45,143 nt of DNA from Gammaproteobacteria bacterium (GCA_029862885.1 JAOTWM010000002.1:1-45143); one strand, 5' to 3'; shown: positions 20,257 to 37,735, counted from the first letter of the stretch. Notes: generated by a model not told the origin, from the sequence alone. Numbers and translations are program-made.

Positions 20257-21258
20257 ATGGAAACGCTTGGTGAGTATACAGTTCAGGCGCGTTTGACGAG
20301 CGGGCCCGATGCGGAGTTAATTTTGGGGCGGTCGGCCGACGATTCACAACTGATTATCAAACGCTTGCCCATTGCCTATCGTTTTGACAAGCAGCGGCGA
20401 CAGACATTCACGTATGAGGCGAATCTTGCAAGCAAGCTCAGTCACCCCGGCTTTCGAAACCTTATCGCTTTATCAGAAATTGATGGTGAATTAGTTCAGA
20501 TTTATGACTGGGCTGGCGGTCAATCAATAGCCTCTTTGTTGACCACGTGTCGGCGGCATTATAAGCGAATACCCATTGCCATCGGCTTTGTTCTCCTCCG
20601 CCAAATAGTTGCCGCATTGGACGAACTACATAATCGGGTTGCTGAGGATGACTCGCTACCCTCGGATCTGCACGTAGCATTGCGACCGGATGCATTGAAT
20701 CTGTGCGATGATGGGCAATGTCAGATTTTACAATTCAGCCTGATCCCTCCGCCGTCGATCACTAGGTCCATTATTTACTCGGGAGAGCAGTCCTATGCCA
20801 TGTATGCGGCGCCCGAGCAGTGTGTGGCCGGACCGATACCGGATTTCCGTGCTGATTTCTTCACGCTGGGAATGCTCGGATTTGAATTATTGACATCAAA
20901 GTCATTATTTTGTTTGGAGTCAGGGGAAATGAAAATGTCGCTAGTAAATCGACGGAAAATCCGCTGTCTGCATCCGTTATTGTCCGATGTGGATCCAGAC
21001 CTCGAGAAATACGACGATGCCGTGATTGGCCTGCTTCAACCCTTGCCCGAGTTACGCACCGGTCAGCTGGATACATTTAGGAGTTCGATCACCGATGCCA
21101 TAGCCCACGGTGACGTTATGGCTGGCACGTCCGACGTATGTGCCTTTATTACCGAAATGCAAAACCTCGAGCGCGCCGAAACCCTCCGTGAGAGCGTCTC
21201 TGATAGTTCATCCAAACCAAGCATGATGAGCACAATCGCCCAATACAACGCTTCTTAG
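20257..21258 (+). CDS. Ser/Thr protein kinase-like protein, probably a pseudokinase
   Basis: IIKRL, FTYEA, HPGF, YAAPEQ and DFRADFFTLG are present. The catalytic loop reads HVALRPDA and DFG reads QFS. Confidence 0.75.
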   Translation: METLGEYTVQARLTSGPDAELILGRSADDSQLIIKRLPIAYRFDKQRRQTFTYEANLASKLSHPGFRNLIALSEIDGELVQIYDWAGGQSIASLLTTCRRHYKRIPIAIGFVLLRQIVAALDELHNRVAEDDSLPSDLHVALRPDALNLCDDGQCQILQFSLIPPPSITRSIIYSGEQSYAMYAAPEQCVAGPIPDFRADFFTLGMLGFELLTSKSLFCLESGEMKMSLVNRRKIRCLHPLLSDVDPDLEKYDDAVIGLLQPLPELRTGQLDTFRSSITDAIAHGDVMAGTSDVCAFITEMQNLERAETLRESVSDSSSKPSMMSTIAQYNAS

Positions 21259-21331: not shown

Positions 21332-22114
21332 GTGCTCGTATTCATCACCTCAATTCGCCATCCGCGCAACTGCAATTCCTACGACCGAGTCGTGCAGTTG
21401 TTGGACCAAACCCTTAATTCCGTTTGCGCGCAAACAAGCATCAACTACCATGTGGTGGTTGTCGCTAATAAGACACCGGACCTCGTCGACAGAAAAAATG
21501 TTCATTTCGTTGAAGTTACGTTCCCCCCTCCGAGTGAACTGGAACAACCCAATACAGGAATGCAGGCAATCAGGGTCGACCGGGGATCAAAATATGTAGT
21601 AGGGCTGATTTATGCGAAACGATTCATGCCGGATTACATTATGTTCTTCGATGCTGATGATTATATCAGTCGGCGGATCGTGGAATTCGTGGAGCAGAAT
21701 CCCACGGAAGACGGTTGGTATTTTGAGCATGGTTATCGTTACAAGTATGGGTCGGATAAGGTAACTCTGCTTGACGAATTTAACAAAGCTTGTGGAACGA
21801 GCCACATTATCCGTTATTCCCTATTTGAAATACCGAAGGAACTCACAGTCGGGTCGCCGCTATCTTCGATTGAAGATAAGATTGACAGCCGCTACTTGAA
21901 CTTTACGCTCGGTAGTCACCGATTTGCTCGTAGGCAATTTCGGGAGATTGGCGTAACGCTCAGCGCGCTACCGTTCCCGGGCGCCGTCTGGGTCCTGGGT
22001 AATGGTGAAAATCATTCCGGCAAAAAGGGGCGCCCCGGCGATCTTCCGTTGACGGACCGGATTCGGGAAGAATTCACCCTATATGAGCCCGCAACCATCG
22101 CCCCGACGGACTAA
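21332..22114 (+). CDS. Glycosyltransferase, GT-A/family 2-like
   Basis: TLNSVCAQT, YIMFFDADD (DxD), CGTSHII, GNGENHS. Confidence 0.75.
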   Translation: MLVFITSIRHPRNCNSYDRVVQLLDQTLNSVCAQTSINYHVVVVANKTPDLVDRKNVHFVEVTFPPPSELEQPNTGMQAIRVDRGSKYVVGLIYAKRFMPDYIMFFDADDYISRRIVEFVEQNPTEDGWYFEHGYRYKYGSDKVTLLDEFNKACGTSHIIRYSLFEIPKELTVGSPLSSIEDKIDSRYLNFTLGSHRFARRQFREIGVTLSALPFPGAVWVLGNGENHSGKKGRPGDLPLTDRIREEFTLYEPATIAPTD

Positions 22115-22235: not shown

Positions 22236-23804
22236 ATGAAAACGGCCTTCATTTCCTGCTTCGAAGTATCGGTTAAACGACCGCCAATTCACACGATCTT
22301 AGTTTTTTTGGCACTTAGTTTGCTCTCTTGCTCTAGGTTCGCTGCGGCAAGTGCGGCTGACGGTGAACCTGGCGACTTAAGTTGCGAGGGCTGCAATGTA
22401 CTGTTTTTAAACCTGGACTTTTTGAGGTCCGACTATACTGGCCTGATAAGTGACAGCAAGCACACGCCGAACATTGATCGGTTCTTCAAGAACTCGATCA
22501 TTTTTGAGAACGCGTTCTCGCCGGCGGGATCCTCGTATCGCGGAAACCTAGCCGTATTAACCGCGACGGACGCGCATATATACGGAGTCGATGTTCAAAG
22601 CTTTCATTTACTTAAGGCAAGGAAACAATTAGGGCCCTGGAAGAAGATCTATACCTATCATAAGACGATCGCCCAAGTGCTGTCTCGGCACGGGTACCGA
22701 ACAGTGAACCTGAATAAGGGCACTCGATCGGGACGCGGCACTTTTCTCGACCGTGGCTTTGACGAATATCAGCAGTTTCATATAAGGCTGACGATCGAAG
22801 ATCTCCTGCCGCCACTGGAGACGCATATCCGATCGACCCAAAAGCCATTCTTTATTCTATTCCATGCTGTACCTACTCGACTACACCGGGCATTTTACCC
22901 GTTAAATCGCGATCGAATTCTTGATAAGCATATTATTTACCAAGAGTATTCGATTCAGAATAGACCATACGGATACAAGGTGATACGTGACAGAAGTGCG
23001 TCTCCGCAAATACAACGAGAGACAGAACACAAGATTTATATGCAGCAATTGAAATATGCTGATGATACTCTCTCTAAACCGTTCGACATGCTGAGGGAGT
23101 TTGAACGCAATACTATTATCGTCTTGTATTCAAATCATGGAACACAGATCGGCGATAAGGGAATTTATGCCTCAAATGGCGTCTCATACCAGTCATCAGT
23201 TCGCGTTCCGCTGATGATAAAACATCCTAAGGTTAAGACACCTATGCGAATTGCTACGACAATTTCGCTCGTCGATCTTGTGCCGACGATCTATGAAATG
23301 TTGGGCGTGTTCAAACCCGGGCACTCAACTGGCCAAAGTCTAATTCCACTGATAAACGGTGAGGAGTATTACAAGGACTACATCGTTGGGAAAAACGATC
23401 CAGACGAATATATTCTGTCTGGAAAATGGAAGCTTATTATTCGATATCACAAAGAACGGCGGCTTTATAATCTTAAAGTCGACCCATTAGGTCGCGAAGA
23501 CCTTTCCGAAAAGCGGAAACTTATCGCGCGCAGGATGGAGTATCAATCGGTTATGGACCTGGACGAGAGTAAAACTATCGTCAACGACGAATGGAAACTT
23601 ATACTGACGCAGAAGAAGAATCTGGAACTATACGACCTTGACGCCGACCCTGACGAGTCCACTAACGTGGCGGCGGACTACCCAGAGGTTACCCGTACGC
23701 TTGAAGACAAGCTCATCGAATTCAAGCATCAAGCGAGACAACGGCGCATCGATATTATCGGAGACACGCTGAGAGATGGAAGTACAGGACAAGACGAAGA
23801 CTGA
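22236..23804 (+). CDS. Sulfatase-like hydrolase/transferase (non-canonical active site, duplicated C-terminal module)
   Basis: Signal-like N-terminus, CEGCNVLFLNLDFLRSD, TPNID, SNHG, VPLMIKHP, LVDLVPTI. No CxPxR. Confidence 0.8.
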   Translation: MKTAFISCFEVSVKRPPIHTILVFLALSLLSCSRFAAASAADGEPGDLSCEGCNVLFLNLDFLRSDYTGLISDSKHTPNIDRFFKNSIIFENAFSPAGSSYRGNLAVLTATDAHIYGVDVQSFHLLKARKQLGPWKKIYTYHKTIAQVLSRHGYRTVNLNKGTRSGRGTFLDRGFDEYQQFHIRLTIEDLLPPLETHIRSTQKPFFILFHAVPTRLHRAFYPLNRDRILDKHIIYQEYSIQNRPYGYKVIRDRSASPQIQRETEHKIYMQQLKYADDTLSKPFDMLREFERNTIIVLYSNHGTQIGDKGIYASNGVSYQSSVRVPLMIKHPKVKTPMRIATTISLVDLVPTIYEMLGVFKPGHSTGQSLIPLINGEEYYKDYIVGKNDPDEYILSGKWKLIIRYHKERRLYNLKVDPLGREDLSEKRKLIARRMEYQSVMDLDESKTIVNDEWKLILTQKKNLELYDLDADPDESTNVAADYPEVTRTLEDKLIEFKHQARQRRIDIIGDTLRDGSTGQDED

Positions 23805-23862
23805 GGTTTTTCCGGCACTACGTCATTGAGATCTAATCGTCTTGATATGGTAGGCGAGGATT

Positions 23863-25257
23863 ATGATGCCCGCTAACGCCAGTCTACAAATGGCTGCGGC
23901 ACTGATTGCCGGCGCATTACTGTTTGTATCGGGCTCCAGTAGCCGAGCCGACGGAGGAACCGATAGCCCATCGGTAGACGGCCAAGTAACGGGCAGCGAA
24001 TCGCTGGCAGCACTTGATTTATCCTGCCCCAATTGCAATGTGATTCTGCTCAATATAGAGCTGCTACGAGCGGATCACGTGGGATTGCTTAGTGGATCTA
24101 CGGATAGCGCAACGCCCAACATCGATAGTTTTTTTGGTCGCTCTATCGTCTTTGAGCAGGCATCCGCGCCAGCGGGTGAGAGTTACCGGAGCAATCTGGC
24201 CGTACAAACAGCCATGCACGCGTTTCACTATGACGCCGATCAGAGTGTTATCGATAAATTTGCGAAGCGTGGTGCCAAGGCATTACCACCTGAAGAGGCG
24301 CGGAAGATGGTGGCGATGCTTACTCGCTACCCGACGATGGCCGAAGTATTGAAGGAAAATGGTTACCATACCGTAAGCCTTAACCAAGGCATTCGTGCGG
24401 GGGAGCGATTGTTGCTTGACCGGGGTTTTGATCAGGCGATCGAATGGGGTCGCCGAAATACTTCATTTCGGGATACGGTCGCGGATCTTGGGAAGCGGCT
24501 CAGTACCGCTGATGGGAAATCATTTATTTTGTATCGTCCCGAAGGCCTCCATCCTTACCCCTACTATTATCCACCCGATCGACCGCGCGTTATCCAGGAA
24601 AATAAGATTCTTTATAAATATCGCCCGAGGTTCGGAAGGTTCAATGTCACGTTTAATGTGGCACTGCCCCAGCCCGAGCAGAGAAAGATTCATCGTTTGA
24701 TCTACCGCCAGCAGCTTAAGTACATCGATGAGGAACTGGGTAAGGTATTTGGGTTAATCAAGAAGGAGCAATTGAACCGATCCAGCGTAATTGTTTTGTA
24801 TGCGAATCACGGTAGCGGGTTAGGCGATAATGGCGTTCATCGACTGGCCGTATCCTACCAATCATGTATCCACGTTCCCTTAATAATATATCATCCAAAG
24901 ATAACTCGTCAGATCAGAGTATCTGACCCAGTAGCCCTTATTGACCTGGCGCCCACTATCTATGAGATCGTCGGTGCAAGTAATATTCCGCAATCTGACG
25001 GGCATAGTTTGATTCGTGACGACAGCACCAATAAAACGGATCTCATTGGTCGCAACGACATCGACGAATATATCCGGATGGATAATATGAAGCTAATAAT
25101 AAAGAATGCCGTTCAACGAGAGCTGTATGACTTACGTGTAGATCCTCATGAGAATGACAATTTGATCGACAGTTTACCTTCAGTAGCACGTCGACTGGAA
25201 GCGATTCTGCTGGCGAGGAAGATTCAACTATTGCAGAATGCACCCGAACGGCATTGA
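23863..25257 (+). CDS. Sulfatase-like hydrolase/transferase (non-canonical active site)
   Basis: Signal peptide, CPNCNVILLNIELLRAD, TPNID, ANHG, HVPLIIYHP, LIDLAPTI, ELYDLRVDPHE. Confidence 0.8.
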   Translation: MMPANASLQMAAALIAGALLFVSGSSSRADGGTDSPSVDGQVTGSESLAALDLSCPNCNVILLNIELLRADHVGLLSGSTDSATPNIDSFFGRSIVFEQASAPAGESYRSNLAVQTAMHAFHYDADQSVIDKFAKRGAKALPPEEARKMVAMLTRYPTMAEVLKENGYHTVSLNQGIRAGERLLLDRGFDQAIEWGRRNTSFRDTVADLGKRLSTADGKSFILYRPEGLHPYPYYYPPDRPRVIQENKILYKYRPRFGRFNVTFNVALPQPEQRKIHRLIYRQQLKYIDEELGKVFGLIKKEQLNRSSVIVLYANHGSGLGDNGVHRLAVSYQSCIHVPLIIYHPKITRQIRVSDPVALIDLAPTIYEIVGASNIPQSDGHSLIRDDSTNKTDLIGRNDIDEYIRMDNMKLIIKNAVQRELYDLRVDPHENDNLIDSLPSVARRLEAILLARKIQLLQNAPERH

Positions 25258-25286
25258 CTCACAATCACTGATTCTAGCCTGACTTG

Positions 25287-27362
25287 TCAATTCATAATTT
25301 CTTTCAGTACATGACCTTCAACAAACTCTGGTATTTCCCTGCCAAGCAACGACATGATAGTTGGATATTGATCCACGTGCTGAATAGGAGTCTCAATTTC
25401 ATAATTGCTCTTGATGCCGGGGCCCATGACGATGAAGGGCGTCCACATACCACTTTGATCGTCCGGTAACACGGCCTGTTTGTATCCGCTTGTTATAGAT
25501 GCGACGAAACTTTCAAGGTTCTGGCTAATATCCTCCACCCATCCATAGCCGACGTTGTTGGCAATTATCAAATCACCAACTCGATCGGGCGGTAAACCAA
25601 CAGACTCAGCGTCTTCCCACTTAGTAACACGGGCCAGCGGTTCTACTCCGGATTCATCCCTCAAGTCCTCAAGAATAGTAATTACATCATTCCTAAGCTG
25701 CTCATACTTTGGACCTGACGCACGCCTATAGTTTCCGCCCAACCCGGCGGGATTTATATAGATGTTATCCATCTTAAGAAACACGACCTTACTGTCTCGC
25801 CAGTTTATTTTATAGATCCCAGTGGACTCATCATATGAGTACTTCAGTAGCCCCTCTTTGGCGAAAATATTATTCAGTCTTACCTCAGTGTTTAACGGCA
25901 CAATTCCGTGATCCGAACTCAATATCACATAAGCGTCACCGTCAACTCGCTCCAATATTTCTCCAATAATTGCATCGATACCTTTGTATAGAATCTTCAC
26001 TTCTTGCCACAGCTTCTGCCGCTCTTCTTCGGTTATCTCGTTGTACCGGGTACTTTTTGGGTCAAGATAACCAAGCCACCAACGGCTAGTTAACATCTGA
26101 TTGGGTGTATACACATCGTGTATAATGACGTCGCTGCCCGTTTCTTCTATTAGGTAACCAGCTGCCTCCTTATGCCATTTAATACTCATCGCCGACTCTT
26201 CTAGAAAAGTTGATTTATCTTCATCGTAATAAATCAACTGTGGTGGAAAATTATCCGCGAAATCTACCATAGGACCAATTGACTCGCCCATGCTTGAGGC
26301 AATATGCGCCGGCTTTGTTACGTATTGGTTCATGTTGTCATATAAAAAACGAATCCGGAAAAAATCCTTTTCGCCAAGTTTTATCACTTTAACCCTTGCC
26401 TGAGTTTTGACGTCTATAGTTGCCAGTTCGCGCTCCCAATCCATCTTTTTGGGGCTAGTGATTTTGTAATCGTTATTGGTTTGATACTGAACAGTAAGGG
26501 GGGTCCAGTCGCTCCATTCGCCGACTCGTACCCGTGTCCATACATTATTTTTATCTGGGGAAAACAACACGCTATCGTAATTCTCCACTGAGTCATCGGT
26601 AGAATCGTAAATCAATCCAAACATGCTGGCACCCCAGTTGGATAGCAGCACTTCCCTTGCGGGACTGAAGCTTTGCGGGAGCGCGATCTGCCAGTCGGCC
26701 GGCTTCGCAACCGAGACGAATTTGGTCAATTCGGAACCAAGCTCAAATAGGCGGTTCCGGTGTCCCAGCGATGCACGTATATCGGTGTCCGTATTCGTGT
26801 GAAAGTTTATAGCGGGAAAATCAAGTCCCCAGCCGCCCCATCGGCCGCGAATCGTAATGCCGCGCGACAATTCCGGCGGCGTCGAGCCAGGAACGGATAG
26901 TAAGGTAACAACATCGCCTGCCTTTTCTAGTGTGAACCAGATCGGTGGTACTTTCTTGGCAACGGAGCTAAAACCACTTTTCGAAACGACATTAAGTGGA
27001 TAACCGCTTATCCGCATTGGTCCATCAGCGACACCATGGACTTTGGGAGTTGCACCCGTCAGTAAGGTGGCGAAATTGGTAGGCGTATGGCCTGGGAATA
27101 CCGGCACCGAATAACCGTAAGATCCACGATCCATCATCTTCTTGATATTCGGCAACTCGCCGTTGCTGGCCCACTCGAACACCTTGAAGACATGAGGATC
27201 TGCCCGAAAGCCATCCGGGATAAACCAGTACAGACGAATGGACTTTGCGACCGAGGGCGAATGATCGCCCACCTTAAGATTATCGACATCTGGAAGATTC
27301 CGGATGACTAGACCAGCAATTAGCGCTATGGCGATTGCTGCCGCGACAATGCGCCTATCCAT
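25287..27362 (-). CDS. Alkaline phosphatase superfamily / type I phosphodiesterase-nucleotide pyrophosphatase protein
   Basis: N-terminal anchor, IPDG, HTPTNFATLLTG (Thr nucleophile), LSSDHG, GPGIK, VDQYPTIM. Start placed at ATG 27362. Confidence 0.82.
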   Translation of the reverse strand: MDRRIVAAAIAIALIAGLVIRNLPDVDNLKVGDHSPSVAKSIRLYWFIPDGFRADPHVFKVFEWASNGELPNIKKMMDRGSYGYSVPVFPGHTPTNFATLLTGATPKVHGVADGPMRISGYPLNVVSKSGFSSVAKKVPPIWFTLEKAGDVVTLLSVPGSTPPELSRGITIRGRWGGWGLDFPAINFHTNTDTDIRASLGHRNRLFELGSELTKFVSVAKPADWQIALPQSFSPAREVLLSNWGASMFGLIYDSTDDSVENYDSVLFSPDKNNVWTRVRVGEWSDWTPLTVQYQTNNDYKITSPKKMDWERELATIDVKTQARVKVIKLGEKDFFRIRFLYDNMNQYVTKPAHIASSMGESIGPMVDFADNFPPQLIYYDEDKSTFLEESAMSIKWHKEAAGYLIEETGSDVIIHDVYTPNQMLTSRWWLGYLDPKSTRYNEITEEERQKLWQEVKILYKGIDAIIGEILERVDGDAYVILSSDHGIVPLNTEVRLNNIFAKEGLLKYSYDESTGIYKINWRDSKVVFLKMDNIYINPAGLGGNYRRASGPKYEQLRNDVITILEDLRDESGVEPLARVTKWEDAESVGLPPDRVGDLIIANNVGYGWVEDISQNLESFVASITSGYKQAVLPDDQSGMWTPFIVMGPGIKSNYEIETPIQHVDQYPTIMSLLGREIPEFVEGHVLKEIMN

Positions 27363-27553
27363 AAATCGCGATACCAATCGGAAAATCGAAATTCGACATG
27401 CTAATTTTATCTGTACTCTCCCCCGAACTAACGATGACGTAGTCTGGGTTAGTTTGTACAATAAGAATTACATAATAGTGGCCACCGTTTCGCTTCGCGA
27501 AATCCAAAAATCGCAACGAACTATCGGCTAAATTTTGAATCAGCAGTCTAATT

Positions 27554-28471
27554 GTGACAAATATCTTCGGAATTCCAATTGTTATCGCAATCATTTTGGG
27601 GATTATCTTCCCATACACCGCTATTTCGTTAATGCCATACGGTGTTGCTTTTCTCTTTATACTGATGATGTCCGCAGGAATTACAATCGATTGGCGTAAG
27701 TTACGATATTTTACCTACCGCTTACCGGAATTGCTTATCGGACTAGTATTTTTATTTGCCATATTCCCAATAGGTCAATGGTTGATCGCTCGGTGGTTAG
27801 TTACCGACGACCAGTTTCTATATGGTTTAGTGTTTGCGTCGCTGTGTCCTGTTGCAATTGTCGCGCCGTACTTCAGTAATTTGATTGAGGCCGACGATGA
27901 ATTTGCGTTCGTCCTGATGATCTGGTCGATGATTCTTTGTCCGCTAATTGCGCCTATTATGTTGAAGATCTTACTGCAACCGTCGGTCGCTCTCAACGTG
28001 TTACCTCTTACCAAATACATGCTTCTCCTGGTGACTACGCCAATCGCATTGAGCTATGCGATAGATCGAGTATTCCCGAGGTGCAAAGTGATCTTACGAC
28101 CACTTTTGGGACTATTAAATATGGGTAGCCTAAGCGTCCTGATATTTATCCTTTTCGGCACTGCGGTGGGCCGCTTGAATCTTCACTACACCCCCATAAA
28201 TGACTTGTTTGTCTTGCTTTTTTTAATGTTTCTGCAAGATTTCGGGGTACTAGTCGTGGCCCGTCGAATATTCTCCTTCTGGCTTAGCCCTGAAATCGTC
28301 GGAGCACTTTCAATATCGCTGTCGATGCGAAACGTTGCCATAGCGGCGGGGGTGCTATTATTTTATGATCCCAAAGCGTCTTTTCCTGCGGCATTGGGCT
28401 TCATAGCCCACGCATTCTTGTTCACGTTCATTTCGATGCGCCGCAGGTCCAAGTGGTTCCGCCCCGTATAA
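27554..28471 (+). CDS. Bile acid:sodium symporter (BASS/ACR3-like) family transporter
   Basis: Multiple TM segments with LCPVAIVAP and SMRNVAIA motifs. Confidence 0.7.
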   Translation: MTNIFGIPIVIAIILGIIFPYTAISLMPYGVAFLFILMMSAGITIDWRKLRYFTYRLPELLIGLVFLFAIFPIGQWLIARWLVTDDQFLYGLVFASLCPVAIVAPYFSNLIEADDEFAFVLMIWSMILCPLIAPIMLKILLQPSVALNVLPLTKYMLLLVTTPIALSYAIDRVFPRCKVILRPLLGLLNMGSLSVLIFILFGTAVGRLNLHYTPINDLFVLLFLMFLQDFGVLVVARRIFSFWLSPEIVGALSISLSMRNVAIAAGVLLFYDPKASFPAALGFIAHAFLFTFISMRRRSKWFRPV

Positions 28472-28540
28472 GGTAATTTCGCGTTGCAGGCAGAGTGTGC
28501 GACGCTTGCGTAGGAACTTAGCTCGCCTGGCTATTTGCGG

Positions 28541-29176
28541 TTATGGCCTCCACCTTCGCATGCTCGGAGGACCATGCGACGGAGATTTTCTCTTCACATT
28601 TGGGTATGGATTGCGAGAATCCAACTCCAGAAACTCGGATAACTTCTCCGCTTTATTCGGATCCGAAAGATCGATGGCCAGTAATTGGTCCGAATAATTC
28701 ACAAAGAATGATAGCACCTCGTCGACATGCTGCCGGTGGATATTTTGCAACAGCACGCGATCCTTGGCGCTGACAACCGATAGTTCCGAGGACGCATAGT
28801 TGTTATACTGAAGATACTCGTAAGGATCGAGTCGCCTAGTTCTTCGGTTCTTTAGTTGCCAATGTCGCGCCACAGATTCCCACCATTGGTCGCTATCCCG
28901 GGTAACCAATACGAATCTGCTCTCCTTGTAGCGTCGGTGTAACTCCGTATACAAAGCAGGGAACGGTACATCGGTAAAAGCGTCATGCGATTCGATTACC
29001 GGTGCTAGGGTATCGACCACCAGCTTCTTGCTGGTCAGGCATGTGCCGCACATTTTTTCGTAATTAACGCCATTCACCGAGTGCGGCCAATGTATGGAGC
29101 GAAATCCCACACTCCGAAAAAAACGATTCAGACTTTTGGTTCCTGTTTTCTGAAACCCAATACCGAATACCTTCAT
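28541..29176 (-). CDS. Sulfotransferase family protein (P-loop type)
   Basis: MKVFGIGFQKTGTKSL, AFTDVP, FVLVTRDSDQWWES. Confidence 0.8.
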   Translation of the reverse strand: MKVFGIGFQKTGTKSLNRFFRSVGFRSIHWPHSVNGVNYEKMCGTCLTSKKLVVDTLAPVIESHDAFTDVPFPALYTELHRRYKESRFVLVTRDSDQWWESVARHWQLKNRRTRRLDPYEYLQYNNYASSELSVVSAKDRVLLQNIHRQHVDEVLSFFVNYSDQLLAIDLSDPNKAEKLSEFLELDSRNPYPNVKRKSPSHGPPSMRRWRP

Positions 29177-29341
29177 GATCTCACATCAAAAGAAGATGGT
29201 TGAAGCGGCGAGCACCGCCCAAAGACAATAACCCATTCCACATGCCGAGCAATAGCCCTTGACGGTCCAAGTCCAACTTTAGAAAATGAGCTGCAGACAT
29301 CTGCCACGTGTATTTCGATCGCGAACCCCGTCCACGAAGCA

Positions 29342-30088
29342 ATGATTTCCAAGAAATTCAATTGCCTGTTTGTCCATATACCCAAAACCGCAGGCGAAAG
29401 TATAGAGCGATATTTCATGAAGTTACAGAATCTAACCTGGAATGAACGCTCCGAATTGCTAATTAGCAGGAATCATGACGTGGACTCCGGCCCACCTAGA
29501 TTGGCCCACTTGATGGCCTCCGAGTATCTTAATTACGGTCACGTGGGTGAAGTGGAATTTCGCGATTTTTTCAAATTTGCCATCGTTCGCAATCCCTGGG
29601 AAAGATTAGTGTCGGAATTTTTCTTTAATCACTACGGCCGTTACGAGTTTAAAGTATTTATCTTTGACAGATTCCCAACCGCGATCGACGACGATTACAA
29701 GACGGGATCCGACAGATTTCGTCACATCATACCGCAGTACGATTTTCTTCACGACGAGGAAGATCGGTGTCTGGTCGATTTCATCGGCAGATTCGAGTCG
29801 TTGGGTTCGGATTTTGAAAGGGTCTGCCGACGCCTGAATTTGCCGGTAAAACCGCTAGAGAAACTAAACAGCTTCGAGCGGTTAATGGTACGTCGGCTTC
29901 ACAAATCTGGAAAGCTCAAGACCGGCCAGAAAGTCCAAGTCGAGAAACCGCATTATTCTCAATTTTATGATGACGAGAGTCGAGAGTGGGTGGCAGAGAT
30001 GTACGCAAAGGATATAAAAACCTTCAATTATCAATTCGAGCGGGGTGCCAGGGGTACACGTCCTGTCGTCCGAGTGGTGCGCAACTAA
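29342..30088 (+). CDS. Sulfotransferase family 2 protein
   Basis: FVHIPKTAGESI, VRNPWERLVSEF, HIIPQ, DFIGRFESL, YAKDIKTFNYQF. Confidence 0.87.
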   Translation: MISKKFNCLFVHIPKTAGESIERYFMKLQNLTWNERSELLISRNHDVDSGPPRLAHLMASEYLNYGHVGEVEFRDFFKFAIVRNPWERLVSEFFFNHYGRYEFKVFIFDRFPTAIDDDYKTGSDRFRHIIPQYDFLHDEEDRCLVDFIGRFESLGSDFERVCRRLNLPVKPLEKLNSFERLMVRRLHKSGKLKTGQKVQVEKPHYSQFYDDESREWVAEMYAKDIKTFNYQFERGARGTRPVVRVVRN

Positions 30089-30091
30089 CTT

Positions 30092-30676
30092 CTAATACTT
30101 ACAGTCGATCGTATCGACAAGGGGAGCTCTGGCACTACCACTGTCTAAGGATCGAAAGTGATCGATTTCGAACATTGTCGTGTAATCAGCACAATACAGG
30201 AATGCGTTAACGGCCGAGTATTTAATATCCTCCTCCGAACATGCGCCGGCGGAGAACCTTTCGTTCGCAAATCCAACAAAGTAGCGCAGGTGCCCACCAT
30301 CGACTGCCTTCTCGAAGAATTTCGGCTTAAAGCTATCGGGGCACTCAATATATTCGGTGTGCTGCCCTCGGTACCCTACTCTCTGCTTCTCAAATAGAGC
30401 GCGGAATACGGCGACTTTCTGTACGATCAGCGCATCAGCTACGGACTGATCGATTCCGGTAACCTCCGTCACATTTAATTTTTCGTTCTCGCCAAGATAC
30501 TCTAAGAACGCGATATTGTCCCCATAAGTTGTACGGGAGAATCGGTATCCCCAGAACGAATCGCCCGCCGGGAGAGCGTCGCCTCGCTTTGTGTAATAAA
30601 CCAACACCAGACCCACGGTCGCGACGAGAACGACAATCGGTAATGCTATGACCAACAGTTTGCGTCTCAGAGTCAC
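30092..30676 (-). CDS. Hypothetical membrane-anchored protein
   Basis: N-terminal TM helix followed by a soluble domain with four cysteines. Confidence 0.7.
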   Translation of the reverse strand: MTLRRKLLVIALPIVVLVATVGLVLVYYTKRGDALPAGDSFWGYRFSRTTYGDNIAFLEYLGENEKLNVTEVTGIDQSVADALIVQKVAVFRALFEKQRVGYRGQHTEYIECPDSFKPKFFEKAVDGGHLRYFVGFANERFSAGACSEEDIKYSAVNAFLYCADYTTMFEIDHFRSLDSGSARAPLVDTIDCKY

Positions 30677-30872
30677 GATGGCTATAAGTTGGGAATCCGG
30701 GAGGTTATATGGCCTCTAACGATAGTTTTAATCGAGTCCGTGGCGTTGTCGGTCAAGATGCTACCGGTCGACTCGTGATGTGGGACGAAATGCGGACAAG
30801 TAGTAACTATTCGGTGGTGTCCTTTACCGAAGGCCATACAATTCGGCTGTCATAGACTGGGCCTGTACGCAC

Positions 30873-32153
30873 TTAGTGACGAGCATATTTTATCTTATGG
30901 TTCAGCAAAGTAGCCTCTAGCCTATTGGCGATAATAGGCTCCTTTAAGTATAAGTCGATGGATTCGTGTGGGTCCGATTTTATATTGAATAATAATTTAA
31001 ATCGTCCGTACCGAACAATCAATTTCCATGGGCCGATACGGATGTATTCGTCCCAATTGTTTTTCCCAATAAGAACTTTCTCCTCGGTGTTACGGCCACT
31101 CAGTACATCAAAAAGGTGGTCGTTGGAGATAGGTGTTGCCCACGGTATTTCGAGCATCTTATATATTGCGGGGGCGAGATCCGCTAGAGCAACGGCACTC
31201 GGTACGCGAACAGTTATACTTATTTTCGGATGTAGTATAAGAATTGGAACGTGAACACACGACTGATATGCGACCCCATGCTTAAAAATCCCATTATCGC
31301 CCAATCCGGTTCCGTGGTTGGCATAGAGAACTACGATGCTGTTGTCGTTATAACGCTCCTGTAATACCTTAAATACTCGACCAAGTTGTGCGTCTGCGTA
31401 GCTTAGTTGTCGACTGTAAATATGTCGTTCTATTTGTTGCGCTCGTTCAGGCTCAAGATCTCTCTGCCTTTTCAAGAAATATGCGTATCTGTTCGTTCCA
31501 TTAGGAGCTTGATATTCATAGCGGCGGGCATTAATTGAAGATGCATACTCAGTGTCGGGTTGTATCGGATGTCGATATTGATGATTATGTAATAACGTCG
31601 GGCGAAATAAAACAAATCTTGGGTGATCGCTCGGTCGTTCGAGTTTGTCGATTAGAAGATCGACAAGGTCTTCCATCAAGATTTTTGATGACCACTGCGA
31701 GTAGTCGGCAAATCCCCTATCCAGGAAGACATGTTGGCCCGCCCGACCGCCTTGATTGATATTTATCGTGTGGTATCCGTGTTGCGAGAGAACTTGAGCC
31801 ATGGACACGGAGCTAGTGAGCGACTTCTCGATTTTCAGTTGCTTGATAAGATCGAGTTTCTTGTACCGATCGATTTCCGCAGGCATTACAGGAATCTGGT
31901 GGGGCAATGTTAAGGTCAGTACTGAAGTATTGCTTAGGAATGTCTCCCCTGCCGGGGCGGAGGCATCCTCGAATACTACTCCGTGTTCAAAGAACGCATC
32001 GATATTTGGCGTTAAATCTGCGTTGCTGATAAGTCCGGTAAAGTCTGCTCTTAGTAATTCAATATTCAAGAAGATTACATTGCAACCACGGCAAGCCAAA
32101 TCGCGCGGTGCGCCAGCGGCATCGGGGCTGCCAAAGAGCGTACTCGAATTCAT
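30873..32153 (-). CDS. Sulfatase-like hydrolase/transferase (non-canonical active site), third paralog
   Basis: CRGCNVIFLNIELLRAD, TPNID, ANHG, HVPILILHP, LADLAPAI. No signal peptide in the ORF as called. Confidence 0.8.
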   Translation of the reverse strand: MNSSTLFGSPDAAGAPRDLACRGCNVIFLNIELLRADFTGLISNADLTPNIDAFFEHGVVFEDASAPAGETFLSNTSVLTLTLPHQIPVMPAEIDRYKKLDLIKQLKIEKSLTSSVSMAQVLSQHGYHTININQGGRAGQHVFLDRGFADYSQWSSKILMEDLVDLLIDKLERPSDHPRFVLFRPTLLHNHQYRHPIQPDTEYASSINARRYEYQAPNGTNRYAYFLKRQRDLEPERAQQIERHIYSRQLSYADAQLGRVFKVLQERYNDNSIVVLYANHGTGLGDNGIFKHGVAYQSCVHVPILILHPKISITVRVPSAVALADLAPAIYKMLEIPWATPISNDHLFDVLSGRNTEEKVLIGKNNWDEYIRIGPWKLIVRYGRFKLLFNIKSDPHESIDLYLKEPIIANRLEATLLNHKIKYARH

Positions 32154-32169
32154 AATCTAATTATGAATT
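32147..32169. repeat. Perfect 10-bp inverted repeat overlapping the start codon
   Basis: AATTCATAAT-CTA-ATTATGAATT. Confidence 0.8.
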
Positions 32170-32285
32170 AGCGGCCGAGCGCATATAGCTGTGAATGTGA
32201 AAATAATGCCTTGAGTATCTCTGATCATGACTAGGGAAGTAATAACTCTGAAACACGCTCTGCAGTAGTTAGATCAAGACGACCT

Positions 32286-33047
32286 TCACCTCGACGATAG
32301 CATGGACTGGATTTTGTCAGTCCAGTAGTCGTTTCGTTCTTTATCCAATTTGGAATACTCGCAGTCATCGTCGGATAACAAATCACACGGAACAACATCG
32401 CCAGGCCCTCGCAATACCAACACAAAGCTACTGAGCATGACGGCCTCTCGAATATCATGTGTTATCAGCACGGTACGTGAATTGATCCGAGCGATGGTTT
32501 GACGGAAGTAGCGTTGAACTACATTCTTTGTATCCTGGTCCAGCGAACCAAAGGGTTCATCCATTAGCACACATAATGGGTCCACCGCGAGCGCACGCGC
32601 CAATCCGACTCGCTGCTGCATTCCACCAGACAGTGATTTTGGATAAAGCCCTTCAGTGCCTTCTAATCGCATTGTCTTCAATATCTCGCGCGCACGTTGG
32701 TTTCGCTCCCCATTTGGTAAACCTTTCGCTTTTAAGCCAAACTCAACATTCTCTAACACATTTTTCCATGGATACAAATTATGGTCTTGAAATACCACCG
32801 GGCGAGCAGCGGATGGGCCCATCACCTTATCGCCGCAAATCGATATGGCACCTGCATCTGCTGATGAAAAACCGGCGAGCAACGCTATTAATGTGGATTT
32901 ACCGACACCACTTTGACCGACAACCGCCAATACCATATGGCGGTCATCCAGCGTTAACGATAGATCGCTAAAAATCGGCATGCCGGGATACGAAAAATCG
33001 ACATTGTCGATCTGCATCCAGACTTCTGGGGAACTTCCTTCAGCCAT
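32286..33047 (-). CDS. Nitrate/sulfonate/taurine-type ABC transporter ATP-binding protein
   Basis: GQSGVGKST, VVFQDHNLYPW, LSGGMQQR, LMDEPFGSLD, ITHD. Confidence 0.9.
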   Translation of the reverse strand: MAEGSSPEVWMQIDNVDFSYPGMPIFSDLSLTLDDRHMVLAVVGQSGVGKSTLIALLAGFSSADAGAISICGDKVMGPSAARPVVFQDHNLYPWKNVLENVEFGLKAKGLPNGERNQRAREILKTMRLEGTEGLYPKSLSGGMQQRVGLARALAVDPLCVLMDEPFGSLDQDTKNVVQRYFRQTIARINSRTVLITHDIREAVMLSSFVLVLRGPGDVVPCDLLSDDDCEYSKLDKERNDYWTDKIQSMLSSR

Positions 33048-33786
33048 CGTCCCGCCAATGGCTTAGTCGTAAATCAATTCGCTGCAGGAGGAAGTTACTC
33101 ACATAACCAAGCATGCCGATTACTAGCAGGTAGGAATACAATTTTTCCATTTCGATATTCAGACTGAACAATTGAATGCCATAACCCAACCCACTTGAAG
33201 CTCCCATCATTTCTGCCGCAACAACACAAAACCAGCCGAGGCCGACCCCCAGTCGCAACCCATGGAATGCGTAGGGAAGAGCCGATGGGACGATCACGTC
33301 TGTGAGCTGCAGCAGTTTCCCACAACCGAAGCTTTCAGCAGCGAGGATATGGGATCGCTTGACCTCCATCAAACCTTGCTGAATACCCAACCATATCGGG
33401 AAAAACGCGCCCAGTGCGACTATTGCTATCGCCGGTTGAGTACCCACACCGAATGCAACGATGGCGAGGGGTGTCCAAGCGATCGGTGGAATAGGCCGGA
33501 ACAATTCAATGCCGCCCGATAAGTAGTCGGGAAACGACCTCCAGTATACCGCGACTAAGCCTAGTACCGCCGCGAGTAAAGAGCTAATCGCGACACCGGC
33601 CAACACCCGAAAAAGGCTCGCAAAAGCATCCTTTAGTAATATTCTCGAACGCAGTAACTCCAAAAAGCTCCAGAGCACATCATTTAATGGAGGAGTGAGC
33701 ACATTATTTTTTGATGTTGATAAATGCCACGCTAGCAAAATCACGCACACTCCGACGCTTGCTCGCGCTTGCTGGGGTAGCTTCAT
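33040..33786 (-). CDS. Nitrate/sulfonate/taurine-type ABC transporter permease
   Basis: RPIPPIAWTPL, AFFPI, VVAAEMMGASSGLG (SsuC/TauC pattern). Confidence 0.9.
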   Translation of the reverse strand: MKLPQQARASVGVCVILLAWHLSTSKNNVLTPPLNDVLWSFLELLRSRILLKDAFASLFRVLAGVAISSLLAAVLGLVAVYWRSFPDYLSGGIELFRPIPPIAWTPLAIVAFGVGTQPAIAIVALGAFFPIWLGIQQGLMEVKRSHILAAESFGCGKLLQLTDVIVPSALPYAFHGLRLGVGLGWFCVVAAEMMGASSGLGYGIQLFSLNIEMEKLYSYLLVIGMLGYVSNFLLQRIDLRLSHWRDDG

Positions 33787-33824
33787 CTATCAAGATTCCC
33801 GAGGTCATCCAGTTAAATGAGAGT

Positions 33825-34865
33825 CTAATTTCGTATTTCGATGTTTTCCAAAATGCCACTCTGATCGGCCTCAGAAATAATCTCTTTCATTATTCCAAGG
33901 TCAGTGTACGCTCTCGCATCTATCGGAGACTTTATGATATTGCGCTCAACAAGGAACCGACTGGCCTGGTCGAATATCTCAAAATCTTCGGGAATAAAAT
34001 CAAATCGCAATTCTTGAATGGAGTGGACCCACCGATTCGGTTCGACGGAAGCCGCATCATCAAGCACTGCATCGCTAACATGCAATCTCGATTCAGTCGA
34101 GAAGTATTGGTTAAGAAAACCCGGATTATTTGCAAAGATATGCCAGCTCAATCTGAACGCAGACAAAAATGATTTCAGTTTCTCCCGGCGCTTACTTAAC
34201 ATTTCCGCAGTCGCGATAACCACAGAAACCACCTTTCCACAATGAAGTATTTTAGCTTTGCCTTGTTCTTCGAACACCGCCGGCAGTGGATCGAACCCGT
34301 AAAGCGCATCGACTCCGGGCCAAGTGGAGTTATCCTTTATGTTTGCAAGTAGCGCCGATTGTTGGGACATGTCGAGCTTTCCAGTACGAATGCCGGACAA
34401 GTCAATACCTGCAGTGGCAATAGCGGACATGGCAACTCGCTCCGCCGCAGCACCAACGGGTCCCATTATTGTTTTGTTTGCCAACTCGGTTAGAGCATTG
34501 ACGCCAGAACCAACCGGTACATATATGCAGACCCGGTTATACATCATTCTAGCCACAATCCGATAGGTCGGATCCTTCGAGAGCAATACCAGTGCAGGTT
34601 GGTCGGCCGTTAACAGAACATCCACCTCACCAGCCAGTGCAGCTCGATTCAGCGGCCCACCATAGGCAAATCCTATGTATTCAACTTCTAAATCCACTAG
34701 CTGCGGGATATTCGTATGCTTAAGGCCCATGACTAGCTGCCCTTGCGTCGCCCAGGGGATTTGCCAGCCAAGCCGCAATGCAGGCGAACCTTCCGCCACA
34801 ACGGTCATTGCATAGCCGCAACCAATACAAAAAAGCAGCATTTGACTACAGAGTTTTCGCATCAT
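33825..34865 (-). CDS. Nitrate/sulfonate/taurine-type ABC transporter substrate-binding protein
   Basis: Signal peptide, LRLGWQ, FAYGGPLNRAALAGEVDV (SsuA/TauA-like). First gene of the ABC operon. Confidence 0.82.
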   Translation of the reverse strand: MMRKLCSQMLLFCIGCGYAMTVVAEGSPALRLGWQIPWATQGQLVMGLKHTNIPQLVDLEVEYIGFAYGGPLNRAALAGEVDVLLTADQPALVLLSKDPTYRIVARMMYNRVCIYVPVGSGVNALTELANKTIMGPVGAAAERVAMSAIATAGIDLSGIRTGKLDMSQQSALLANIKDNSTWPGVDALYGFDPLPAVFEEQGKAKILHCGKVVSVVIATAEMLSKRREKLKSFLSAFRLSWHIFANNPGFLNQYFSTESRLHVSDAVLDDAASVEPNRWVHSIQELRFDFIPEDFEIFDQASRFLVERNIIKSPIDARAYTDLGIMKEIISEADQSGILENIEIRN

Positions 34866-34998
34866 AAGAATGGTTCCGGGCCTCAAGTGAATTGCGGTTC
34901 GATTTTCCTGATATATTAGTCTATCTCGGCACCTGAACAAACTGAACTTCCGCTCAATAGTTACCGAGGGAGGCTGTACTAATCGTTATTCAACAATT

Positions 34999-35916
34999 TT
35001 GAAACGCTCGATGAAGAGTACGACGCATAGAACAAAGACCGAACTGGTCGAGAAAACGCTAGCCAAAGAGATGTTTTTTATCGTCGGTGTAGCCAAATCC
35101 GGCACCACGTGGTTGCAACACTTACTGGATTCTCATCCAGAAATCGTGTGTCGGGGCGAGTCCCACTTTATCGATATATTTCATGCCTCATTAGTGAAGG
35201 CGTTCGAAGAGTACAACAACGCGGTGGTCAAACAGGGCGGTGTTGTCGCCCATTTAAAGGAGTACGGCGGTCATGTTGATACGCTTCGTTATGACTTGAA
35301 CGACTCATTTTACTTACTCGTCCAGGCAATTGGGCTTATGTTTGGTAAGTGGAATAACGATCCCTCGATTAGACTAATTGGGGAAAAAACGCCCGACAAC
35401 ATTGCGTGCCTCAGTTTATTGTCGAGTATATTTCCCTCGGCTAAATTCATACACATTATTAGGGACGGCAGGGATAGCGCTGTGTCGGGGTGGTTTTTTA
35501 ACCAGAGTGGGCTCGCTAAGAACAAACAGATCGTCCAAACGTTCGACGAGTATGTGCGGGGATTTGCGAAGGCATGGAGTAGTCAGATTAACCAAGGATG
35601 TGCGATCGGCGCTGGTCTCGATGATCGTTACATGGAAGTACGGTACGAGAACCTAGCCTTTACCCCAAATGACGAAGCGACGAAGCTACTGCGATATTTG
35701 GATGTTGACGATTCCGAGCAGTGTATTAACAACTGCCTGAAAGCATCTTCTTTTCAATCACTTACTGGTGGCCGACGTCCCGGAGAAGAAGACCCAGAAG
35801 CCTTCTTCCGGAAAGGAGTGGTAGGTGACTGGAGAAATAAATTTAGCGATGACCTCAGAGACGATTTTTACAACATAGCCGGAGACACACTGACCCGTTT
35901 CGGATATGAGGGATAG
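34999..35916 (+). CDS. PAPS-dependent sulfotransferase
   Basis: GVAKSGTTWL, EKTP, IIRDGRDSAVS, VRYENL, FFRKGVVGDW. Confidence 0.9.
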   Translation: MKRSMKSTTHRTKTELVEKTLAKEMFFIVGVAKSGTTWLQHLLDSHPEIVCRGESHFIDIFHASLVKAFEEYNNAVVKQGGVVAHLKEYGGHVDTLRYDLNDSFYLLVQAIGLMFGKWNNDPSIRLIGEKTPDNIACLSLLSSIFPSAKFIHIIRDGRDSAVSGWFFNQSGLAKNKQIVQTFDEYVRGFAKAWSSQINQGCAIGAGLDDRYMEVRYENLAFTPNDEATKLLRYLDVDDSEQCINNCLKASSFQSLTGGRRPGEEDPEAFFRKGVVGDWRNKFSDDLRDDFYNIAGDTLTRFGYEG

Positions 35917-35960
35917 ATTGATGCGCACCCATCAGAATCGATGCTGATCGCGGCAATAGT

Positions 35961-36878
35961 ATGGCGACTATTAGCGACAAATTAGAATTGGCTGGGCGTA
36001 ATATTAAGCTGCTCGATAAGAAGCGGCTGTTCTTTGTTTCGGGTATATCCAAATCGGGAACTACCTGGCTGGAGCGGGTTTTGGATAGTCACCCGGAAAT
36101 CATTTGCAAGGGTGAGGCTCATTTCGGCAGTCTCCTAGAGCCAGCGATCCGTAATACCGTAGCGGAATATAACGCCCGTATACCTAGGCAGGGAAATTGG
36201 TCACGCCATAGAAAAGAGAACACGACCGATAATAGTTCATCCTCATATATCTACGACACCAGTGATTTGGATTTCCTGCTCGCCACTGCCATCAAACTAA
36301 TGCTTGTGAAATGGGCCAATGTCGATACCGTAAAATGCGTAGGAGAAAAGACACCAAATAACTTTACTTATTATCCGCTCCTCGCCCGATTATTTCCGGA
36401 CTCGAAGTATATTTATATGATTCGAGATGTCCGCGACGTCATAGTTTCCGCTTGGTTCTATAATTTAGCCGTTGGCTCCGATCAAATGCTACGGCAATTC
36501 GTCAGCATCGAACGATACGCCGTACACGTTGCAAAAGTGTGGGCAGCCGAGGTATCGAGCGCGATGACATTGGGGCGGCCGCTCGGTAACAATTATTGTG
36601 AAATTCAATATGAGAACCTTTGGCAGAACCCGGAACATGAAGTAGGTCGACTCCTCGAGTTTCTCGATGTGTCCACGTCGGATTCAGTTATCAATGAATG
36701 TTTGGGGCTTACGGATTTTTCAAAGTTGTCGGGAGGCCGGCCACGCGGCACCGAAAACAGAAGTTCGTTCTATCGAAAGGGGGTGGTCGGGGACTGGAAG
36801 AATCATCTTGATGACACGTCGATTGCTGAAGTAAAGAACCACTGCGGTAGCTTGATGAGTGAATTGGGATATGACTAG
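35961..36878 (+). CDS. PAPS-dependent sulfotransferase (tandem paralog)
   Basis: GISKSGTTWL, EKTP, IRDVRDVIVS, IQYENL, FYRKGVVGDWKN. Confidence 0.9.
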   Translation: MATISDKLELAGRNIKLLDKKRLFFVSGISKSGTTWLERVLDSHPEIICKGEAHFGSLLEPAIRNTVAEYNARIPRQGNWSRHRKENTTDNSSSSYIYDTSDLDFLLATAIKLMLVKWANVDTVKCVGEKTPNNFTYYPLLARLFPDSKYIYMIRDVRDVIVSAWFYNLAVGSDQMLRQFVSIERYAVHVAKVWAAEVSSAMTLGRPLGNNYCEIQYENLWQNPEHEVGRLLEFLDVSTSDSVINECLGLTDFSKLSGGRPRGTENRSSFYRKGVVGDWKNHLDDTSIAEVKNHCGSLMSELGYD

Positions 36879-36925
36879 GGTTCGCCCGCTAACCCGGATA
36901 TTTCATGTATGGTTTGGAGTGATGC

Positions 36926-37729: not shown

Positions 37730-37735
37730 TAGATG

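Follow-up and report, generated by a model that had tools for sequence, protein, structure and literature searches.

The window analysed here, a stretch of 45,143 nucleotides from a Gammaproteobacteria bacterium (GCA_029862885.1 JAOTWM010000002.1:1-45143), encodes three paralogous proteins with a sulfatase fold and a rewired active site, which we call A, B and C. Judged on the whole of the analysis, these proteins are probably extracytoplasmic metalloenzymes with a Thr or Ser nucleophile, similar in this respect to LtaS and EptA, and not formylglycine sulfatases. The enzymes in charge of formylglycine maturation recognise the motif (C/S)xPxR. Since Thr is not convertible to formylglycine, and since the Pro and Arg of this motif are absent, no formylglycine can form in A, B or C, and its presence is excluded on the evidence of their sequences. 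The available excerpt of the SulfAtlas paper makes the corresponding argument that Thr, once oxidised, would yield a ketone instead of formylglycine (PMC5066984). An earlier note on this DNA, made from the sequence alone, had suggested that the three proteins are possibly something other than sulfatases, and we find that they are not formylglycine sulfatases, the nucleophile being either Thr or a Ser deprived of the accompanying Pro and Arg.

The three open reading frames (ORFs) delimited in the earlier note are present in the sequence, together with all the motifs that it read in them (Table 1). A, B and C share 39-40% pairwise identity, and all of them pass the gathering threshold (25 bits) of the Pfam Sulfatase model PF00884, a broad model that takes in LtaS/Ept-type transferases as well as sulfatases, with scores of 90.9, 71.4 and 77.5 bits, respectively; A and B are also above the cutoff for the model of the C-terminal subdomain SGSH_C. 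The CxxC motif lies in the context DLSCEGCNV in A, DLSCPNCNV in B and DLACRGCNV in C, and, according to the topology, would be placed where strand 1 begins, on the side opposite to the ligand at the strand end. The segment containing the nucleophile reads SPAGSSYRGN in A, APAGESYRSN in B and APAGETFLSN in C, and the first metal-ligand position is occupied by Asp in A (NLDFLR) and by Glu in B and C (NIELLR). Common to all three are Glu or Asp followed by a hydrophobic residue in the place of DD, [ST]-x-x-[SG]-N in the place of (C/S)xPxR, and NHG in the place of DHG.

Regarding their location, hydrophobic leaders of the signal or lipoprotein type are found at the N-terminus of A, B and nearly all homologues, with lipobox-like signals in the archaeal and planctomycete members, and the LLSC of the leader of A may also be lipobox-like. 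The DLSC of the CxxC region was considered as a lipobox and rejected, given that its residues do not fit the pattern and that about 50 amino acids (aa) separate it from the leader in B. The extracytoplasmic location suggested in the earlier note therefore stands for A, B and nearly all homologues, but not for C as encoded, which has no signal peptide, unlike its C-type orthologues, where hydrophobic leaders are present. Directly upstream of the ATG of C there is a leader-like in-frame stretch, MIRDTQGIIFTFTAICARPLIHN, followed by a TAG codon, which may be a genuine nonsense codon, an artefact of the assembly or a site of read-through. Read coverage at this TAG comes only from the probable source run X1, with no contig there in X3, X4 and X5, and no RNA run was among the sequencing runs listed.

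The replacement of the active site can be followed residue by residue in HMMER alignments to solved S1 sulfatases, made with the single sequence (3ed4 and 7oz8) and with the subfamily profile (9ihk, 7stt, 6hr5 and 7oz8), whose register matches the residue assignment of the earlier note. In A, B and C, the Cys/Ser nucleophile of S1 corresponds to Thr or Ser, the Pro of CxPxR to Leu or Arg, the Ser/Thr of CxP[ST]R to Ser or Gly, and the Arg of CxPxR to Asn. The first Asp of DD is Glu or Asp, the second one is Leu or Phe, and the Asp of DHG is Asn, while the sulfate-binding Lys, situated 12 residues past the DHG His, becomes Asn in A, Leu in B and His in C. The conserved mid-domain His of S1 is kept (H189 in the numbering of C). 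What A, B and C have in common with S1 is thus the two-domain fold, the first carboxylate ligand, H189 and the DHG His, whereas the N-terminal CxxC is an addition of their own.

In the available excerpt of the SulfAtlas paper, membership in S1 is defined by at least 25% identity to characterised enzymes plus two PROSITE signatures, Arg55 is conserved at 99%, and so is Asp317, for which Glu, Thr, Ala, Arg and Tyr are given as replacements, and not Asn (PMC5066984). Neither of the signatures is found in A, B and C. At the place of PS00523, (C/S)-x-P-x-R, the sequences read SSYRGN (A), ESYRSN (B) and ETFLSN (C), where A and B do have Ser at the nucleophile position, but without the Pro and the Arg. 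At the place of PS00149, G-[YV]-x-[ST]-x(2)-[IVAS]-G-K-x(0,1)-[FYWMK]-[HL], they read GYHTININQGGR / GYRTVNLNKGTR / GYHTVSLNQGIR, devoid of G-K-x-H, which appears in no register, the register of this segment differing by +/-2 between alignments. The S1 metal ligands Asp-Asp ... Asp-Asn/His are also absent, with E/D-L/F and N-H at these positions. Since both signatures and the Asp317 rule fail, A, B and C fall outside S1 as SulfAtlas defines it, despite their S1 fold. Furthermore, no NCBIfam model reaches its curated cutoff, those of the named sulfatase subfamilies (arylsulfatase, choline-sulfatase, Mn-arylsulfatase, PehA) included, the best score being 107.9 bits against 481.

The window also contains a canonical sulfatase, partial and running off its right edge (Table 1), and the FGE-sulfatase family PF03781 is matched four times in the same genome, which indicates that ordinary formylglycine sulfatases are made and that the rewiring is confined to A, B and C. 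About 10 further weak sulfatase-like matches were found in this genome, and the canonical sulfatase gene adjoins a UDP-glucose dehydrogenase-like gene.

The S1 fold is evident from the AlphaFold2 model of C, obtained from a 44-sequence alignment with a mean predicted local distance difference test score (pLDDT) of 92.2 and a predicted template-modelling score (pTM) of 0.92. In the comparison of this model with the PDB by Foldseek, the best 50 listed matches were all S1 formylglycine sulfatases, among them those for carrageenan, GalNAc-6, choline and mucin (E-values down to 1e-21, template-modelling (TM) score ~0.68, 15-18% identity); the solved structures used for comparison were 6psm, 9ihk, 7stt, 3ed4 and 7oz8. 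According to the model, A, B and C share the two-domain S1 sulfatase fold, and the best S1 matches at the sequence level are the choline sulfatase 7oz8 (E 6.7e-12) and, with the profile, 9ihk (103 bits).

The substitutions are not restricted to this window. A word-indexed search with C gave 43 close relatives at 205-564 bits, followed by a drop to 69 bits; these relatives, from Desulfosarcina and Gammaproteobacteria metagenome-assembled genomes (MAGs), are named in databases as "arylsulfatase A-like enzyme", "sulfatase-like hydrolase/transferase" or "arylsulfatase". An exhaustive profile search over 1.84 billion representatives resulted in 498 proteins at E <= 1e-30, and only a few among the top 150 matches were of the canonical Cys type, those being tandem-domain proteins. 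The key columns were read in 187 proteins aligned to the subfamily profile, where we distinguish an inner set of 79 proteins with at least 340 bits, which includes A, B and C but not their duplicates P0045, P0020 and P0001, and an outer set of 107 proteins with 160-340 bits.

In the inner set, the nucleophile is Thr in 70 proteins and Ser in 7 (gap in 2), and the first ligand is Glu in 57 and Asp in 19 (Gly in 1, gap in 2), followed by Leu in 73 and by Phe in 4. Pro is present at its position in 2 proteins, the Arg position is occupied by Asn in 57 and by Ala in 10, with no Arg at all, and the Lys-equivalent is His in 58 and Lys in none. At the position of H189 there are 72 His, 6 Arg and 1 Asn. 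The His and the Gly of NHG are invariant (79/79 each), its Asn is kept in 74 proteins (Ser in 2, Thr in 2, Gly in 1, and Asp in none), and both Cys of CxxC are found in 66/79, the remainder being truncated or replaced. The conservation of the nucleophile motif and of NHG, proposed as a check in the earlier note, is therefore borne out among these 79 proteins, with Thr or Ser in 77/77 filled positions and the NHG Asn in 74/79. Judged from the alignment, the substitutions are a selected pattern, kept across bacteria and archaea, and not the product of chance.

The outer set is mostly a separate and larger group, where the nucleophile is Thr in 92 proteins, Ser in 5 and Cys in 2, and where most members have CxxC. 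Its first ligand is Asp in 84 proteins, usually followed by Thr (DT, and not E/D-L), the Pro is kept in 64, the Arg position has His in 48, and the Asp of DHG is kept in 80. These outer proteins, characterized by CxxC, DT, TxPSH and DH(D/E/N), are nevertheless like A, B and C in the CxxC, the Thr nucleophile, the length and the fold class, and like the subfamily in the His at the Lys-equivalent, some of them also adjoining NPP-type and PsbP-like partners. Since this outer clade has both the Thr nucleophile and the CxxC, these two features predate the inner subfamily, whose novelties, as read from the sequences, are NHG, E/D-L, the loss of Pro and the YQS motif. The selected new subfamily put forward in the earlier note thus stands as far as the substitutions conserved in the 79 proteins are concerned, but the Thr nucleophile and the CxxC also belong to the larger outer clade. 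For the outer-clade protein P0146, no solved Thr-type relative was found.

The closest mechanistic analogues of A, B and C would be Ser/Thr-nucleophile transferases of the same superfamily. As described in the available excerpt of a comparative paper, the site of LtaS consists of Thr300, Glu255, Asp475 and His476 with Mn2+; that of EptA, of Thr280, Glu240, His383, His453 and His465 with Zn2+; that of MCR-1, of Thr70, Glu31, His180, Asp250, His251 and His263 with Zn2+; and that of YejM, of Thr302, Asp268 and Asn403 with Mg2+ (PMC7576196). The putative site of C comprises T71, E27, H189, N279, H280 and H292, which, compared with the residues given in that excerpt, is like MCR-1 and EptA in the residue order and in the 12-residue spacing of the last two His, a likeness of order and spacing only, and not of alignment. 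LtaS, EptA and MCR-1 would also be like A, B and C in the Thr nucleophile (Ser in A and B), in a predicted single metal (bound by Glu, Asp/Asn, His and further His residues) and in their extracytoplasmic location. The analogy with LtaS and EptA, which the earlier note names as transferases of this superfamily, is in line with this residue order and spacing.

By sequence, the three proteins are nearer to S1 than to these transferases, the match to EptA being weak (5fgn, E 7e-3, against the value of 7oz8 given above), and the curated NCBIfam cutoffs for transferases are missed by far, with 18-21 bits against 660 for EptA (NF008619) and 23.6 against 970 for LtaS (NF053595). A, B and C have one N-terminal leader at most, the soluble domain filling their 426-522 aa, and contrary to EptA and LtaS they have no five-helix membrane domain, but an S1-type C-terminal subdomain and Asn in the place of Asp. 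From these sequence comparisons, they are not members of the LtaS/EptA family, from which they differ in the membrane domain, the model scores and the Asn. The NPP family also shares the Thr nucleophile with A, B and C, and an NPP-type protein is their constant neighbour. The nucleophile motif of NPPs is T-F-P-N-H, resembling the T-x-P-S-H of the outer clade, but their site holds two metals, and the Pfam Phosphodiest model gives A, B and C a weak match at best or none.

The mechanism that we propose would keep the S1 two-domain scaffold and replace the formylglycine chemistry by a plain Thr/Ser hydroxyl on a single metal site, formed in C by E27, T71, N279 and H280, with H189 and H292 flanking it. 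If A, B and C are catalytically competent, the metal-activated Thr/Ser would attack a phospho-ester or, less likely, a sulfo-ester, to form a covalent enzyme intermediate, as in LtaS, EptA/MCR-1 and NPP, and either water or the hydroxyl of an acceptor would then resolve this intermediate. The enzyme would be part of an extracytoplasmic module, whose other members are an NPP-type enzyme with Thr as nucleophile and an adaptor of PsbP/DcrB fold anchored in the membrane.

This module is recognised from the neighbourhoods of relatives in 13 reference-genome loci, belonging to four Gammaproteobacteria MAG contigs, one Planctomycetaceae, one beta-proteobacterium, one MAG labelled Asaia, and six archaeal DPANN or other MAGs (Altiarchaeota, Nanoarchaeota, Woesearchaeota). 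The annotation covered 77/77 ORFs of the bacterial loci and 50/70 of the archaeal ones, where distal ORFs were omitted, and was complemented by tblastn with the island proteins. The best-conserved partner is the NPP-type protein, remote from all solved structures, which has homologues of 650-720 aa in 11/13 loci with 47-58% identity; the two loci without it (L009 and L015) both end at a contig edge. The small partner adjoins the sulfatase-like gene in 11/13 loci; the exceptions are L014 and L015, where it is missing and which correspond to the A/B halves of the cluster. The homologues of this partner have an N-terminal anchor or a lipoprotein signal, and invariant R, Y, G, P and N positions.

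The small partner has no match to any Pfam or NCBIfam family, Foldseek gave no match at E <= 0.001, and a protein atlas gave TM ~0.5 to unnamed or PsbP-related clusters, with no usable feature. Its model (pLDDT 83.7) is predicted to have a PsbP/Mog1/DcrB-type fold, with VIA-align Z values of 9.7 for DcrB (6e8a), 8.8 for PsbP (2xb3) and 8.4 for the PknH sensor domain (4esq), which are modestly above the typical background of 7-8. A START-domain reading (TM ~0.33) was set aside, the PsbP/DcrB/Mog1 matches of VIA-align being preferred.

In four of the 13 loci (L012, L016, L017 and L020), the gene immediately upstream of the NPP-type one encodes a GT2. L012 and L017 have the ORFs of GT2, the NPP-type protein, the partner and the sulfatase-like protein either abutting or overlapping, and the same order is found in L016 and L020, from Nanoarchaeota and Woesearchaeota MAGs, with gaps of ~70-125 base pairs after GT2, and with GT4 and an ABC-2 type (Wzm/Wzt-like) exporter downstream. 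This operon-like row suggests a link between the module and an exported polymer in DPANN archaea. Because the module is conserved and often encoded beside GT2, its likely substrate would be an exported envelope glycoconjugate or a lipid-linked precursor.

A reciprocal metagenome scan starting from the small partner resulted in 34 loci, 23 of them with a sulfatase-like neighbour (at least 40 bits to the subfamily profile) and 17 with an NPP-type neighbour, most of the loci without such neighbours being short contigs. The full inner-clade motifs were present in 10 loci, and most of the others had outer-clade variants (CxxC, Thr, (D/E)HG). A direct partnership is supported by natural fusions in two metagenome contigs, where a single ORF of 625 aa (L041:2521-4395) contains the partner at residues 71-193 and the sulfatase-like region at 218-621, and another one of 675 aa (L043:4890-6914) contains them at 86-207 and 248-668.

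The DH pair of these fused forms reads AS or GS, and they may accordingly be inactive and act as adaptors only. This feature would also fit the idea that A, B and C themselves are pseudoenzymes, binding an anionic (sulfated or phosphorylated) glycan and perhaps presenting it to the NPP-type enzyme, as would the loss of most canonical catalytic residues with Asp-to-Asn at the metal site, the better conservation of the NPP-type partner (47-58%) compared to the sulfatase-like proteins (30-47%), and the multiple diverging paralogs. We consider it unlikely, however, since pseudoenzymes usually lose their catalytic residues irregularly, and here the nucleophile hydroxyl is never lost (Thr 70 and Ser 7 of 77 filled positions), the His and Gly of NHG are kept in 79/79, and the Glu/Asp in 76/77, from bacteria to archaea at ~30% identity.

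Table 1. Features of the window (positions counted from its first nucleotide; aa, amino acids).
Feature	Position	Strand	Description
Protein-kinase-like	20257..21258	+	333 aa; homologs in L010, L014, L015, L023
Small GT-A-like	21332..22114	+	260 aa; weak GT2 match (E 5e-5); 48-52% homologs in L010, L014, L015, L023
Paralog A	22236..23804	+	522 aa; Ser-type rewired sulfatase-fold; CEGC, NLDFLR, GSSYRGN, SNHG
Paralog B	23863..25257	+	464 aa; Ser-type rewired sulfatase-fold; CPNC, NIELLR, GESYRSN, ANHG; signal peptide
NPP-type (Pfam Phosphodiest)	25287..27461	-	724 aa; 85 bits; N-terminal membrane anchor
SBF (bile acid:sodium symporter family) transporter	27554..28471	+	Homologs in L009, L010, L014, L022
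Sulfotransfer_4	28541..29176	-	Only in this window, in no related locus
Sulfotransfer_2	29342..30088	+	Only in this window, in no related locus
Small partner	30092..30676	-	~190 aa; membrane anchor; four conserved Cys; RVxYPGQ and GYAN
Paralog C	30873..32153	-	426 aa; Thr-type rewired sulfatase-fold; CRGC, NIELLR, GETFLSN, ANHG
Leader-like in-frame stretch, then TAG	approx. 32157..32228	-	Directly upstream of the ATG of C
ABC importer	32286..34940	-	NMT1/TauA-type binding protein, permease, ATPase; co-directional with C and the partner gene
Rest of island	34999..42149		Two Sulfotransfer_1/3, two DUF5672, one TPR+GT9, one TPR; syntenic with L009
Canonical sulfatase, partial	44662..45141		Off right window edge; IIFFADDAGY (DD), CSPSR, GKWH; lipoprotein-like leader

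In the window, the module is found within an island of low guanine-cytosine content (0.47-0.485 at ~20-38 kb, compared with 0.52-0.585 on its left side and 0.50-0.52 on its right side). Its genes follow the order kinase-like, GT-like, A, B, NPP-type, SBF, Sulfotransfer_4, Sulfotransfer_2, small partner and C, and beyond C come the ABC importer, two Sulfotransfer_1/3, two DUF5672, a TPR-GT9 and a TPR gene. The island is partly syntenic with L009, L010, L014, L015 and the genome G037 (L022 and L023), the arrangement of the ABC importer recurring in L009, L010 and L022, and the two Sulfotransfer_1/3 genes being found, among the related loci, only in this window and L009. The DUF5672 pair and the TPR protein with a GT9-like C-terminus lie next to the sulfotransferases both in the window (36926-40095) and in L009 (1974-5179). 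A PqqD-like gene, of the peptide-recognition type, is located just upstream of the kinase-like gene in L014 (1964-2338) and L015 (205-507); no PqqD-like counterpart was detected in the window, where an ORF of 107 aa at 19689-20012 matches no Pfam family. In this genome, the module would be triplicated, within an acquired island that would also sulfate the product of the module by means of its four sulfotransferases.

With these four sulfotransferases in the island, and with a TauA/NMT1-type ABC importer co-directional with C, of the same transporter family as the sulfate-ester importer AtsRBC, it could be thought that A, B and C are, as their S1 fold and SGSH_C-like C-terminal subdomain would allow, true sulfatases of a new mechanism, whose Thr/Ser nucleophile would trim the sulfotransferase product or free sulfur for the importer. 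We regard this as very unlikely, given that the sulfate-binding residues of S1 are gone (Arg in 0/79, Lys after DHG in 0/79, GKxH lost), that a sulfo-Ser/Thr intermediate has no gem-diol release route, and that 12/13 related loci have no sulfotransferases in their flanks, L009 being the sole exception.

In another reading, the module would be catabolic, and its NPP-type and sulfatase-like enzymes would break down phospho- or sulfo-esters outside the cell, such as nucleotides, phospholipid head groups or organosulfates, so that they can be taken up. The operon-like close packing of L012 and L017 with GT2, the GT2, GT4 and ABC-2 exporter of L016 and L020, and the biosynthetic sulfotransferases, DUF5672 and GT9 genes of the window and L009 make this improbable, even though all three core proteins are extracytoplasmic, the ABC importer and the SBF symporter lie beside the module in gammaproteobacterial loci, and DPANN archaea, which carry the module, depend on scavenging.

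Regarding the history of the three genes, the subfamily was found in 2/151 genomes sampled from the same order, the one of the window included, and it is absent from the single same-genus genome; this sparse distribution in the order fits a horizontal acquisition. In a quick maximum-likelihood tree, A falls in a clade of 6 rows (support 100), B in one of 8 (support 99) and C in one of 14 (support 100), all of them within a clade of 30 rows (support 99) whose locus-labelled rows are all Gammaproteobacteria MAGs. L010 is placed in the clades of A and C, L014 and L015 in those of A and B, and L009, from the same MAG as L014, in that of C, and this spread of related MAGs over the three clades indicates that the triplication is old and has been maintained. 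The C-terminal ~60 aa of A are duplicated, with a second profile match at residues 445-506 (window 23568-23753) where WKLI...LY.L..DP.E occurs in tandem; since the A-type relatives P0049 and P0052 carry the same second match, the duplication is a feature of the A-type orthogroup.

Well to the left of the island, the window contains an AbiEii/AbiEi type IV toxin-antitoxin pair (776-2645, minus strand) and a phage-integrase-family fragment (3949-4608), and the region 776-4608 is a mobile-element remnant. The assembly of the window has 5.5 Mb in 727 contigs, and that of the same-genus genome has 2.7 Mb, a gap that may correspond to accessory content or to mixed binning.

Several observations weigh against A, B and C being LtaS/EptA-like metalloenzymes acting on exported glycoconjugates. 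A multi-pass membrane domain is a defining trait of LtaS/EptA-type transferases, and it is present in LtaS, EptA and OpgB, whereas A, B and C have none with which a lipid donor could be reached. In the available excerpt cited above for the active sites, a five-transmembrane domain (5TM) is described for YejM, and transmembrane domains for EptA and LtaS (PMC7576196). The change from Asp to Asn removes a negative metal ligand, and metal binding could be weakened as a result; positions near the pocket vary among the three paralogs, as in the case of the Lys-equivalent (Asn, Leu or His); the fused forms have lost the DH pair; and the sequence and structure comparisons turned up no close relative whose structure is solved or which has been characterised. 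As for the context, the GT2 gene adjoins the NPP-type gene in no more than the four loci named above out of 13, the ABC importer and SBF genes of the gammaproteobacterial loci would also fit scavenging, and the tree has only the support of the Shimodaira-Hasegawa-like approximate likelihood-ratio test (SH-aLRT).

A more specific proposal, which we hold as quite unlikely, is that the NPP-type protein, the PsbP/DcrB-fold anchor and the Thr-type enzymes form a soluble extracytoplasmic machine, not embedded in the membrane, that installs or remodels phospho- or sulfo-esters on exported glycoconjugates, and that in the island of this genome was recruited to a sulfated product, handling sulfate esters through Thr/Ser-O-sulfate. 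If true, this machine would have gone unrecognised before and would be common to bacteria and DPANN archaea, and no sulfatase-fold enzyme before A, B and C would have been seen to act on sulfate esters, either by hydrolysis or by sulfuryl transfer, without formylglycine.

Among the papers listed by searches of the open-access full-text literature, subscription journals being outside this scope, there was no description of a Thr-type, CxxC-bearing, S1-like clade, nor of an NPP/PsbP-like module. The database labels "arylsulfatase" and "sulfatase-like hydrolase/transferase" are almost certainly wrong in functional terms for the group of A, B and C, and the counts of sulfatases made in sediment metagenomes, in relation to the sulfur cycle and glycan degradation, should leave out genes of this type. 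As metalloenzymes with a Thr or Ser nucleophile, the members of this clade would represent an S1 scaffold turned to the Thr/metal chemistry of phospho-transferases, and with it a natural transition of activity within the alkaline-phosphatase superfamily. The two fixed partners that accompany them in bacteria as well as in DPANN archaea, an NPP-type protein and a small one of PsbP fold, suggest an envelope pathway that has not been described before.

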